Below, in pieces: positions 12,190-15,543 of a stretch of 64,000 nucleotides of DNA (position 1 is the stretch's first letter; every line of letters starts with the position of its first letter). The notes beneath the pieces are model-generated. The model had not been told where the DNA came from and searched no databases. It was given only the letters and a program-made list of their open reading frames with translations. A program made the position numbers and the translations under genes. The stretch lies in assembly GCF_024502345.1 (NCBI RefSeq), contig NZ_JALDNN010000001.1; one strand, written 5' to 3'. This DNA is from Escherichia coli (GTDB lineage: Bacteria > Pseudomonadota > Gammaproteobacteria > Enterobacterales > Enterobacteriaceae).

Positions 12190-12849
12190 ATGAGCGAACA
12201 AATCACGTTTGCCACCAGCGATTTTGCCAGTAACCCGGAACCACGTTGCCCCTGCATTCTGCTGCTGGATGTTTCTGGCTCGATGAGCGGCAGACCTATT
12301 AATGAACTTAACGCCGGATTGGTTACCTTTCGTGATGAACTGCTTGCTGATCCGCTGGCTTTAAAAAGAGTGGAACTCGGCATTGTGACGTTCGGCCCGG
12401 TGCATGTGGAACAACCCTTTACCAGCGCCGCTAACTTTTTCCCGCCCATCCTGTTTGCCCTGGGGGATACGCCTATGGGGGCCGCCATTACCAAAGCCCT
12501 GGATATGGTAGAGGAGCGGAAACGTGAGTACCGCGCAAATGGTATTTCGTATTATCGCCCGTGGATTTTCCTGATCACCGATGGCGCTCCAACCGATGAG
12601 TGGCAGGCTGCCGCCAACAAAGTGTTTCAGGGGGAAGAAGATAAGAAGTTTGCCTTCTTTTCCATCGGTGTTCAGGGGGCGGATATGAAGACGCTGGCAC
12701 AAATCAGCGTTCGTCAGCCTTTGCCACTGCAGGGATTACAATTCCGTGAACTGTTTAGCTGGTTATCCAGTTCGCTGCGTTCGGTTTCCCGCTCCACGCC
12801 GGGAACGGAAGTTGTGCTGGAAGCGCCAAAAGGCTGGACGTCAGTGTGA
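12190..12849 (+). CDS. yegL: von Willebrand factor A (vWA, TerY-like) domain protein YegL
   Basis: 219-aa ORF with vWA/MIDAS-like start ([12 protein letters not shown]); first gene of a three-gene unit with overlapping junctions. Confidence 0.9.
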
Positions 12850-13606
12850 GCTGGCGTCTGGTTTATGCATCCGCTGTTGGAACGTCGCACATTAGCGCTG
12901 ATTTACCTTGTCAGGATGCCTGCCAGATGCAGGTTGCCTGGCTAAATGACCAGCAGCCATTACTGGTGATGTTCCTTGCTGATGGCGCAGTAGCGTTTCG
13001 CAGGGAGGAGAAGGCGCGAAGCTCGCCGTCAATGAAGCGATGACGTTTATGGTGCAAAAAGTACAGGACGGTGAATTGGGGCTTAATGATGTCCTCGCCA
13101 CAAATATGGTACTGACCATTCGTCAACGACTTTTTGCCGAGGCAGAAGCCAAAGCATTAGCAGTTCGCGATTTTGCCTGCACGTTTCTGGGATTGATTTC
13201 ATCGGCTAACGGCACATTGATTATGCAAATTGGCGACGGCGGTGTAGTGGTGGATTTTGGTCACGGTCTGCAATTACCGCTTACGCCGATGGTGGGTGAA
13301 TATGCCAATATGACGCATTTCATTACCGATGAAGATGCCGTTTCCAGACTGGAAACTTTCACCAGCACTGAGCGTGTGCATAAAGTTGCAGCATTTACGG
13401 ATGGTATCCAGCGACTGGCGTTAAATATGTTGGATAATTCTCCGCATGTGCCTTTCTTTACCCCTTTTTTCAATGGACTGGCGGCAGCAACGCAGGAACA
13501 GCTCGATTTATTACCTGAATTGTTAAAGCAGTTTTTGTCCAGCCCGGCGGTAAACGAGCGTACCGATGATGATAAAACGTTGGCACTGGCGCTGTGGTTA
13601 CCATGA
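12846..13606 (+). pseudogene. yegK: PP2C-family Ser/Thr phosphatase YegK (PphC), disrupted by a 1-nt frameshift
   Basis: Two track ORFs in different frames (12846..13043, 65 aa; 13040..13606, 188 aa). The second frame reads ...SVSQGGEGAKLAVNEA directly upstream of its Met; joining the frames by adding one base near 12990-13000 restores one 253-aa protein. Confidence 0.8.
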
Positions 13607-15543
13607 AACCCACTTTATATACTGCTACTGGTGAGTGCGTTACGCCAGGCCGTGAACTGGGCAAAGGTGGCGAAGGCGCGGTTTATGATATCAATGAGTT
13701 TGTCGATAGCGTCGCCAAGATTTATCACACGCCGCCACCCGCCTTAAAACAGGACAAACTTGCCTTTATGGCTGCGACAGCTGACGCGCAGTTGTTGAAT
13801 TATGTCGCCTGGCCGCAGGCAACGCTTCACGGTGGACGAGACGGAAAAGTTATCGGTTTTATGATGCCAAAAGTTTCTGGTAAAGAACCGATTCATATGA
13901 TCTATAGCCCGGCACATCGTCGCCAGAGTTACCCTCATTGTGCGTGGGATTTTCTACTCTATGTTGCGCGCAATATTGCTTCATCTTTTGCTACGGTTCA
14001 CGAGCACGGGCACGTCGTGGGGGACGTAAACCAGAACAGCTTTATGGTAGGTCGCGACAGCAAAGTGGTGTTGATCGATAGTGACTCCTTTCAGATTAAC
14101 GCCAATGGCACACTGCATTTATGCGAAGTCGGCGTGTCGCATTTTACGCCGCCAGAGCTACAAACCTTGCCATCATTTGTCGGTTTTGAACGTACCGCGA
14201 ATCACGATAATTTTGGCCTTGCGTTGCTGATTTTTCACGTCTTGTTTGGTGGGCGGCATCCTTATTCTGGTGTGCCGCTTATCTCTGATGCGGGTAATGC
14301 GCTGGAGACGGATATTGCCCATTTCCGTTATGCCTACGCGTCAGATAATCAGCGACGTGGTTTAAAACCGCCGCCACGATCTATTCCGCTGTCGATGTTA
14401 CCGGGCGATGTTGAAGCCATGTTTCAGCAGGCATTCACGGAAAGTGGCGTGGCAACGGGGCGTCCGACGGCTAAAGCGTGGGTAGCGGCACTGGACTCTC
14501 TACGCCAACAGTTAAAGAAATGTACCGTTTCAGCAATGCATGTTTACCCCGCTCATTTGACTGACTGCCCGTGGTGTGCGCTGGATAATCAAGGTGTTAT
14601 CTATTTTATTGATCTTGGTGAAGAGGTCATTACCACCGGCGGGGATTTTGTGCTGGCGAAAGTCTGGGCGATGGTGATGGCGTCAGTAGCACCGCCAGCA
14701 TTGCAATTGCCATTACCCGATCATTTCCAACCGACTGGCAGGCTGCTTCCTTTAGGCCTGTTACGGCGCGAATACATCATTCTGATTGAGATCGCACTGT
14801 CAGCGTTATCGCTGTTGCTTTGCGGCCTTCAGGCAGAACCGCGTTATATTATTTTGGTTCCTGTGCTGGCGGCTATCTGGATTATTGGCAGTCTGACAAG
14901 CAAAGCTTATAAAGCAGAAATCCAGCAACGCCGTGAGGCATTTAATCGCGCGAAAATGGACTATGACCATTTAGTCAGCCAGATCCAACAGTTGGGCGGG
15001 CTGGAAGGTTTTATCGCCAAACGGACGATGCTCGAAAAAATGAAGGACGAAATTCTCGGGTTACCGGAAGAAGAAAAACGTGCTCTGGCAGCACTTCACG
15101 ACACTGCAAGGGAACGGCAGAAGCAGAAGTTTCTGGAGGGATTTTTTATTGATGCTGCCTCTATTCCCGGCGTTGGCCCTGCGCGTAAAGCGGCGTTACG
15201 GTCTTTTGGTATTGAAACAGCCGCGGATGTTACCCGTCGTGGGGTTAAGCAAGTTAAAGGGTTTGGCGACCATCTGACCCAGGCGGTTATCGACTGGAAA
15301 GCGAGTTGCGAACGCCGTTTTGTGTTCAGGCCGAACGAAGCGGTAACGCCAGCAGACAGACAGGCGGTAATGGCGAAAATGGCCGCCAAACGACATCGGC
15401 TGGAAGCCGCATTGACAGAGGGCGCGACAGAGTTGCAGCGATTCCGCCTTCATGCTCCAGCACGGACCATGCCGTTGATGGAACAGTTACGTCAGGCAGC
15501 AGAAAAACTGGCTCAGGCGCAGGCAGATTTAAGCCGCTGCTGA
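13594..15543 (+). CDS. yegI: Ser/Thr protein kinase-like protein YegI (N-terminal kinase-like domain, central hydrophobic segments, C-terminal domain)
   Basis: 649-aa ORF overlapping the yegK end; precise start (13594 or the ATG at 13603) uncertain. Confidence 0.88.
   Translation: MVTMKPTLYTATGECVTPGRELGKGGEGAVYDINEFVDSVAKIYHTPPPALKQDKLAFMAATADAQLLNYVAWPQATLHGGRDGKVIGFMMPKVSGKEPIHMIYSPAHRRQSYPHCAWDFLLYVARNIASSFATVHEHGHVVGDVNQNSFMVGRDSKVVLIDSDSFQINANGTLHLCEVGVSHFTPPELQTLPSFVGFERTANHDNFGLALLIFHVLFGGRHPYSGVPLISDAGNALETDIAHFRYAYASDNQRRGLKPPPRSIPLSMLPGDVEAMFQQAFTESGVATGRPTAKAWVAALDSLRQQLKKCTVSAMHVYPAHLTDCPWCALDNQGVIYFIDLGEEVITTGGDFVLAKVWAMVMASVAPPALQLPLPDHFQPTGRLLPLGLLRREYIILIEIALSALSLLLCGLQAEPRYIILVPVLAAIWIIGSLTSKAYKAEIQQRREAFNRAKMDYDHLVSQIQQLGGLEGFIAKRTMLEKMKDEILGLPEEEKRALAALHDTARERQKQKFLEGFFIDAASIPGVGPARKAALRSFGIETAADVTRRGVKQVKGFGDHLTQAVIDWKASCERRFVFRPNEAVTPADRQAVMAKMAAKRHRLEAALTEGATELQRFRLHAPARTMPLMEQLRQAAEKLAQAQADLSRC

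Follow-up and report, generated by a model that had tools for sequence, protein, structure and literature searches.

The yegL-pphC-yegI operon of Escherichia coli, a compact TerY-P-like triad with a frameshifted phosphatase gene in one clone

We analyzed a 64,000-nucleotide (nt) stretch of an Escherichia coli genome (assembly GCF_024502345.1, contig NZ_JALDNN010000001.1; hereafter, the window) and found that its interval 12190–15543 is the chromosomal operon yegL-pphC-yegI, which encodes a vWA protein, a PP2C-type phosphatase, and a membrane Ser/Thr kinase. Judged from sequence comparison, the operon is a genuine compact homologue of the original ter-island triad, and its pphC copy (older name yegK) carries a one-nucleotide deletion that predicts a null allele. 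As a whole, the explanation that we favor, with a confidence slightly above even, is a compact switch of the TerY-P class whose pphC brake has been lost in this strain and whose kinase is inferred to sense a DNA-related cue. The operon has already been named, annotated, and biochemically characterized in E. coli, and the strain-specific pseudogene is the sole addition made here.

Homology to ter-island triads

A TerY-P triad is an operon that combines genes for a vWA protein of the TerY type, a phosphatase of the PP2C family, and a Ser/Thr(/Tyr) kinase, the classical kinase being followed by a zinc ribbon (PMC11090510, PMC4978471, and PMC7699616, which draw on Anantharaman, Iyer and Aravind 2012). 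According to PMC11090510 and PMC7699616, the TerY-P versions of Gao 2020 protect against T7-like phages and have the kinase fused to an OB fold in place of the zinc ribbon. A variant TerY-P of Pseudomonas aeruginosa was also functional against phage (Costa 2024, PMC10889362).

The first-pass annotation, made from the letters of the window, had proposed this architecture for the interval, and comparison with the ter island of the IncHI2 plasmid pXDL-CTX-M-14 upheld the proposal. The island encodes, in this order, a TerY-C vWA protein of 346 amino acids (aa), a PP2C of 545 aa, and a kinase of 499 aa. In BLASTP, YegL aligned with TerY-C over residues 19–202 (29% identity, E = 2e-21), PphC aligned over its whole length with the last 270 residues of the island PP2C (E = 3e-5, with LADGAGS on VADGAGS), and YegI aligned with the island kinase over the C-lobe and a Cys motif (E = 3e-5, with CPWC on CPYC). 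Because all three proteins match pairwise and the gene order is the same, the sequences identify the operon as a true homologue of the ter-island triad. The two differ in that YegL lacks the TerY-C extension and PphC lacks the 270-residue N-terminal region, whereas YegI has, in addition, a hairpin in the membrane, a coiled-coil stalk, and a putative (HhH)2 head. Furthermore, ter genes are not found near the operon in the window.

YegL is a cytoplasmic TerY-like vWA protein, as had been claimed. It matched Pfam VWA with E = 2.6e-9, and its metal ion-dependent adhesion site (MIDAS) is complete (D27, S29, S31, T94, and D131; at least 95% conserved in 77 homologues), followed by a conserved Ser-rich C-terminal tail (residues 190–203). 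In addition, YegL matched 2,332 plasmid records, mostly of vWA genes in ter islands. The PP2C fold was likewise confirmed by profile, using an intact PphC orthologue (Pfam PP2C_2, E = 4.3e-49), in which the DGAG, GDG, TDG, and DD motifs are conserved.

Locus organization

The window covers a segment of the E. coli chromosome with baeSR, mdtDCBA, three ibs/sib repeats, yegL, pphC, yegI, yegD, alkA, dgcE, and the colanic acid genes. The operon occupies the same site, between mdtA/ibs-sib and yegD, as in REL606 and MG1655 (Rajagopalan, Nagle, Dworkin, J Bacteriol 2018; Rajagopalan, Dworkin, FEBS Lett 2020), and RefSeq names its genes yegL (vWA domain protein), pphC (PP2C phosphatase), and yegI (protein kinase YegI). 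The limits of the interval given by the earlier annotation coincided exactly with the open reading frames (ORFs), and the genes that it described as translationally coupled overlap at both junctions: the yegL stop and the pphC start share a 4-nt GTGA (12846–12849), and the pphC stop and the yegI start share a 4-nt ATGA (13603–13606). In the ORF listing, yegI can also be extended upstream of its annotated ATG to a GTG at 13594.

Of 5,426 complete E. coli genomes, 5,416 contained the locus, with nucleotide identities of 94–99.7%, and it also occurs in E. fergusonii, E. marmotae, and E. whittamii. Identical copies of YegI and of YegL were present in public E. coli assemblies, those of YegL on 283 contigs. 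The layout in the window is the compact B-type, with the ATGA overlap and without yegJ. Only K-12-type lineages carry yegJ, inserted antisense between pphC and yegI (positions 4483–4944 of the K-12-type locus L002). No YegJ homologue was detected near the triad in any of the 79 retrieved loci.

The closest complete genome was NCTC9064, with 99.7% identity over the interval. Positions 12190–15426, comprising yegL, pphC, and most of yegI, were 100% identical to NCTC9064 except for the pphC deletion; beyond it, only eight substitutions were found, all grouped at 15427–15537, whereas the flanking mdtA–mdtD, yegD, and wca genes showed 96–98% identity. Given this contrast and the clustering of the eight substitutions, the 3' end of yegI looks like the boundary of a recombination tract. 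Within E. coli, pphC was the most divergent gene of the neighborhood: between L002 and the window, its identity was 91.3% at the nucleotide level and 92.5% at the amino acid level, as against nucleotide identities of 98.2% for mdtA and 99.0% for yegD. The triad as a whole was 90–95% identical in 1,955 of 5,418 records.

A private frameshift in pphC

In the pairwise alignment with NCTC9064, one G is missing at 12989/12990, which changes GCAGGT to GCAGT and leads to a premature TGA at 13041–13043; the frameshift reported by the first-pass annotation is confirmed. The deletion sets the window copy apart from those of REL606 and MG1655. In the DGAG motif, whose conservation across 78 homologues is 95% or more, the lost base directly follows Asp46-Gly47-Ala48, and the substitution D46N has been reported to make PphC catalytically dead (Rajagopalan and Dworkin, bioRxiv 10.1101/303594). 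PphC is cut after Ala48, and neither of the two remnant ORFs (Table 1) holds the full set of metal-binding motifs; pphC of the window is therefore predicted to be a null allele. The ATG of the C-terminal remnant (13040) overlaps the premature stop as ATGA (13040–13043), and three data sets annotate the corresponding 188-aa fragment as a protein.

The deletion is real and private to one clone. A sequencing or assembly error, with the operon intact in the organism, could be suspected for a single-base indel whose allele is missing from the complete RefSeq genomes of E. coli: a 101-nt probe spanning the position found it in 0 of 5,426 complete genomes, and the 365 best matches, of at most 99.0% identity, all differed by exactly the one-base gap. 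However, the identical allele was present in the assembly GCA_050022275.1, where a 6,567-nt segment equals the window exactly, and in the Logan assemblies of two separate SRA runs (SRR24000611 and SRR33420591). The deleted base also belongs to a GG dinucleotide rather than a homopolymer, and of 35 coding sequences aligned to those of NCTC9064, none but pphC was frameshifted. On these grounds we rejected an artefact, to which we assign hardly any probability. Programmed frameshifting was also rejected, given that the site consists of a GG dinucleotide and lacks conservation and that its allele is absent from the 5,426 genomes.

Architecture and activity of YegI

The first-pass annotation had described YegI as a Ser/Thr kinase with membrane-spanning segments, and this description was corroborated by profile matches, by two hydrophobic segments, and by published biochemistry. 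E. coli YegI itself gave no match to Pfam Pkinase and only a weak one to HHH_5. Nevertheless, a profile built from 28 YegI family members matched the PDB kinases TTK, RSK2, PknE, and B-Raf over residues 16–242 (E = 2e-6 to 1e-3), relatives at 35–43% identity gave weak Pfam Pkinase matches, and the Gly-rich loop G20xGG23, K39, D141, and D159 were invariant in the 28 sequences (33–63% identity). A kinase fold is supported by these three observations. C-terminal to the kinase domain lies a putative zinc ribbon or knuckle, whose Cys motif can be aligned to C...CPYC in the ter-island kinase, and then the transmembrane hairpin, whose position is kept among relatives although its sequence is not.

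Published work describes YegI as an active, Mn2+-preferring Ser/Thr kinase and PphC as a Mn2+-dependent PP2C that dephosphorylates autophosphorylated YegI in vitro (Rajagopalan and Dworkin; bioRxiv 10.1101/303594, 10.1101/819920). Activity depends on K39, on D141, on a DSD motif that is unusual, and on the autophosphorylation of S153, S160, and S162, the published kinase mutants being K39D and D141N; the autophosphorylation follows second-order kinetics, and YegI can phosphorylate PphC in vitro (Rajagopalan and Dworkin). PhoA–LacZ topology mapping identified YegI as a two-pass inner-membrane protein with both termini in the cytoplasm. The window YegI retains K39, D141, S153, and D159-S160-D161-S162, and hence every residue published as essential in REL606/MG1655. 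As in Hanks-type kinase/PP2C pairs such as PknB/PstP and PrkC/PrpC, autophosphorylation of the activation loop is reset by a PP2C encoded in the operon. YegI differs from those kinases in that it has no extracellular sensor domain, both of its termini being cytoplasmic, in its atypical motifs (VGDxxQxS for HRDxxxxN and DSD for DFG), and in that its system includes an obligatory vWA partner gene.

An AlphaFold2 model of the last 211 YegI residues was all-helical, with a pLDDT (predicted local distance difference test) score of 94. It predicts a stalk made of several N-terminal helices and a 63-residue C-terminal helix, with a small domain of two HhH motifs between them. For this region, Pfam HHH_5 matched with E = 0.0016–0.008, 31 of 70 relatives matched at E ≤ 0.1, and G536, D542, G555, W565, and F573 were invariant in the 28 sequences. 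When the HhH part was modeled separately (pLDDT 90), its nearest PDB structures in Foldseek were the N-terminal (HhH)2 domains of Rad51, Dmc1, and RadA and the thumbs of Y-family polymerases, with RNA polymerase alpha-CTD, RuvA, and DisA as further look-alikes; these matches reached probabilities of up to 0.97 and template modeling (TM) scores of about 0.6, but their E-values were 0.3 or higher, which is not significant for such a short query. The whole C-terminal model, searched with Foldseek against PDB, returned only non-significant coiled-coil look-alikes (Smc, the dynein stalk, and SH3BP5), and a family profile of the C-terminus found nothing significant among PDB sequences. We refer to the (HhH)2 head as putative.

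Distribution and gene neighborhoods

We investigated the distribution of the family in protein clusters at 50% identity. YegI homologues comprised 9,650 cluster representatives at E ≤ 1e-3 and 3,219 at E ≤ 1e-30; among the top 150 matches, nearly all were 635–670 aa long and aligned end to end. In a scan of one genome per species, 494 genomes had a YegI homologue. The bacteria concerned included Beta-, Gamma-, Alpha-, and Deltaproteobacteria, Paenibacillus, Clostridiales, Georgenia, Chlorobiaceae, Pirellulales, and Acidobacteria, and the archaea included Methanoregula and Methanomicrobiales. Homologues were also found on megaplasmids of Pseudomonas, Cupriavidus, Methylocystis, and Mesorhizobium. 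A phage origin of the triad was rejected, since 50,697 phage records contained a single weak YegI match.

Synteny was examined in the 79 retrieved loci, of which 4 were cut by contig ends, leaving 75 informative. The genes for vWA, PP2C, and kinase were adjacent and co-oriented in 72 loci, and one more (L039) had the same order with a split PP2C gene; 73 of the 75 informative loci thus keep the order, which bears out the expected co-occurrence of the three genes across genomes, and the other two had no detectable adjacent vWA gene. The triad is an autonomous cassette with the same order in bacteria and archaea, often located in defence islands or mobile elements.

Clustering of neighboring genes in the 79 loci revealed no fourth gene that recurs in general. 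A co-oriented gene of about 223 aa stands directly 3' of the kinase gene in 15 loci of the Competibacteraceae/Contendobacter type (L047, L049, L057, L062, L064, L067, L071, L072, L076, L077, L079, L080, L081, L087, and L088) and may be a clade-specific fourth component. The earlier annotation had left open whether the convergent yegD, encoding an Hsp70/actin-like ATPase, belongs to the system. A YegD-like gene flanks the triad in only 4 of the 79 loci, all from Escherichia; we therefore rejected yegD as a component and regard it as a neighbor.

For nine relatives, annotated flanks were long enough to be read, and seven of them had defence or mobile genes within 9 kb. The neighbors were an SLFN-like helicase, an McrA-like gene, BrxR, and JetB in one context; AbiH, a KAP NTPase, and TniQ/TniB in another; GmrSD, SymE, HsdS, and BrnA in a third; AbiJ in a fourth; GmrSD, HsdR, Abi_C, and HsdS in a fifth; KwaA, a 1,708-aa helicase, Nmad2/3, and an MmeI-like restriction–modification enzyme in a sixth; and a Cap4 nuclease, HEPN-RES, and an integrase in the seventh. 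The remaining two contexts showed nothing clear. The association with restriction, Abi, Kiwa, Wadjet, and BREX-regulator genes is suggestive, being a raw count from nine contexts without a background rate.

Other features of the window

Three tandem SIB_RNA/Ibs repeats adjoin yegL upstream (Table 1); NCTC9064 also has three annotated Ibs genes and L002 has two. Downstream, dgcE carries a nonsense codon (Gln552, CAG to TAG) and no indels, so that two inactivated genes lie within 6 kb of each other. Apart from the triad, yegH is the one gene of the window with a link to ter; it lies about 10 kb from the triad, with yegD, alkA, dgcE, udk, dcd, and asmA in between, and its proximity is probably coincidental. 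In addition, wcaE (34951–35697) differs from NCTC9064 by an in-frame 9-nt indel.

Table 1. Coordinates of the operon, its predicted parts, and other features in the window
Feature	Position	Strand	Description
yegL	12190–12849	+	219 aa, vWA, intact
pphC (older name yegK)	12846–13606	+	PP2C pseudogene, 1-nt deletion
Deletion site in pphC	12987–12992	+	GCA-GGT (Ala48-Gly49) to GCAGT; codon 49 of 253
N-terminal remnant ORF of pphC	12846–13043	+	65 aa: 48 native and 17 out-of-frame residues; stop TGA at 13041–13043
C-terminal remnant ORF of pphC	13040–13606	+	188 aa, native residues 66–253; without motifs I–II, including Asp46
yegI	13603–15543	+	646 aa from annotated ATG, membrane Ser/Thr kinase, intact
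YegI kinase domain	13603–14502	+	Residues ~1–300; profile versus PDB and published activity
Putative zinc ribbon/knuckle	14521–14577	+	C307-x5-H313-x8-C322-P-W-C325, invariant in 28 sequences
Transmembrane hairpin	14773–14904	+	Residues 391–410 and 415–434, 4-residue loop; hydropathy and published topology
Cytoplasmic C-terminal module	14908–15540	+	Residues 436–646; predicted helical coiled-coil stalk and putative (HhH)2 head
Putative (HhH)2 head	15145–15327	+	Residues ~515–575; AlphaFold2 model, weak HHH_5
Three tandem SIB_RNA/Ibs type I toxin–antitoxin repeats	11240–12043	RNAs −, ibs ORFs +	140–146 bits each
dgcE/yegE	17999–21316	−	Diguanylate cyclase, 1,105 aa, nonsense codon at 19661–19663
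yegH	25116–26699	−	TerC-family membrane protein annotation

Discussion

Within the TerY-P-class switch that we favor, the cytoplasmic zinc ribbon, stalk, and HhH head of YegI would sense a nucleic-acid-related cue at the membrane, our best guess being incoming phage or other foreign DNA. They would give the membrane-tethered kinase a surface for sensing nucleic acids; other TerY-P kinases have an OB fold or zinc ribbon at this position. The trigger would lead to dimerization and trans-autophosphorylation of YegI, and the active kinase would then phosphorylate its targets; YegL may take part through its MIDAS as a partner, substrate, or adaptor, and PphC would hold the switch off and reset it. 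With the TerY-P systems of Gao 2020 and Costa 2024, the operon shares the three-domain logic, the occurrence as a stand-alone cassette in defence islands, and a kinase C-terminus that may likewise be a nucleic-acid-binding module. Unlike the Gao 2020 kinase, the C-terminus of YegI is predicted to be all-helical (hairpin, coiled coil, and putative HhH), with no OB fold. An overexpression screen found that YegL and YegI each independently raise endogenous DNA damage (bioRxiv 10.1101/354589), which is compatible with a DNA-directed output and notable in view of the putative HhH head of YegI. MdtA and MdtB of the adjacent operon are on the same list (bioRxiv 10.1101/354589).

Several observations weigh against this explanation. 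The (HhH)2 assignment is putative, with Pfam E-values of about 1e-3 and Foldseek E-values of at least 0.3, and DNA binding by YegI, the part played by YegL, and the nature of the trigger are deduced from anatomy and context. The authors of the biochemical studies found almost no expression under standard conditions, and they found no substrates. Moreover, Escherichia has the operon at a constant site of its core genome instead of in a variable island, an unusual setting for a defence system. Finally, the TerY model of PADLOC-DB 2.0 matched YegL with only E = 0.04 (11.4 bits), PphC matched nothing up to E = 10, and YegI showed only a weak likeness to the PD-T4-6 and MkoA kinases; no TerY-P call was made even at E ≤ 10 in a scan that included YegD. 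NCBIfam likewise gave only sub-threshold matches for the triad proteins. Because the PADLOC models fail on all three proteins, we do not claim membership of the TerY-P defence family validated in Gao 2020. A link to the variant of Costa 2024 was also not established, as a Pseudomonas homologue used as the query retrieved no P. aeruginosa protein among its top matches, and our literature search found no paper linking yegI with phage defence.

What the frameshift does to the module is a separate question. The sequence implies that the dedicated brake on YegI is lost in this strain, and the unopposed kinase suggested by the first-pass annotation is plausible. Which outcome follows, a hyperactive kinase or an operon that stays silent, would be decided by the translation of yegI, for example by re-initiation at the ATGA of 13040–13043, and by transcription of the operon. 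Silencing of the whole module by neutral decay, leaving the strain effectively null for the pathway, is a substantial possibility that we place a little below even. Translation now terminates 560 nt short of the yegI start (13603, within the stop codon of pphC), and coupling into yegI would be lost; this start has no evident Shine–Dalgarno sequence and normally leans on the ATGA overlap. In addition, no consensus promoter was found upstream of yegL or within the operon, pphC and yegI have been published as hardly expressed, with a 2026 RNase E study likewise finding these genes barely expressed, and the dgcE nonsense codon is a second inactivating mutation in the same strain. The triad also decays repeatedly across loci: yegI is in two ORFs in two Escherichia representative genomes (L011 and L012), and the PP2C gene is split in L039, L064, and L065. 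L011 is Escherichia sp. MOD1-EC7003 and L012 is E1V33; some of the loci with split genes are drafts or metagenome-assembled genomes, for which sequencing error is possible. Conversely, the in-frame ATG that overlaps the premature TGA could, by its fortuitous position, restart ribosomes and carry them to yegI, restoring the coupling, and both yegL and yegI are fully intact with all catalytic residues kept. A silent, decaying module and a hyperactive kinase are about as likely as each other.

Regarding the role of the triad, defence against phages or foreign DNA is the best supported, by analogy and neighborhood, although we hold it tentatively, somewhat short of an even chance. The main rival is that the triad serves Escherichia in housekeeping or stress signaling (in stationary phase, at the envelope, or in response to DNA damage, with cellular proteins as the phosphorylated targets) and is not anti-phage, which we consider rather unlikely. 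Such a role would agree with the single fixed locus in E. coli and three other Escherichia species, with the stationary-phase expression reported for the operon, with the DNA damage seen upon overproduction, and with the missing PADLOC match. However, outside Escherichia the cassette crosses phyla and reaches megaplasmids, and restriction, Abi, Kiwa, Wadjet, and BREX-regulator genes adjoin it in most of the annotated contexts. Within E. coli, moreover, pphC is the most divergent gene at the locus (91% nucleotide identity versus 98–99% for mdtA and yegD), and interruption of the operon by yegJ is tolerated in the K-12 lineage. A function in tellurite or metal resistance like that of ter operons is very improbable: YegL is homologous to ter-island TerY vWA proteins and the TerC-family gene yegH lies 10 kb away, but unrelated genes separate yegH from the triad, and neighbor clustering found no terZABCDE, TerD, or biosynthetic ter genes beside the triad in the window or the 79 loci.

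Since the operon is well known in E. coli, the residual interest of the TerY-P-class reading lies at the level of the family, a widespread subtype with a distinctive kinase architecture that defence finders based on hidden Markov models would miss. A bolder form of it, which we regard as unlikely on present evidence, is that the triad represents a large unrecognized subtype of TerY-P immune switches, with more than 3,000 clusters at 50% identity in bacteria and archaea, in which a membrane kinase with a zinc ribbon and an (HhH)2 head on a coiled coil detects DNA of phages or other foreign DNA as it enters at the inner membrane. If this were true, E. coli would carry a cryptic defence system in its core genome that current detection tools have missed, and a natural pphC-null clone would offer a ready test of a kinase freed from its brake. 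The synteny, the defence neighborhoods, the ter-island homology, and the anatomy of the kinase make a role against phages or foreign DNA testable, and the pphC-null strain, with yegL and yegI intact, would be a convenient genetic starting point.

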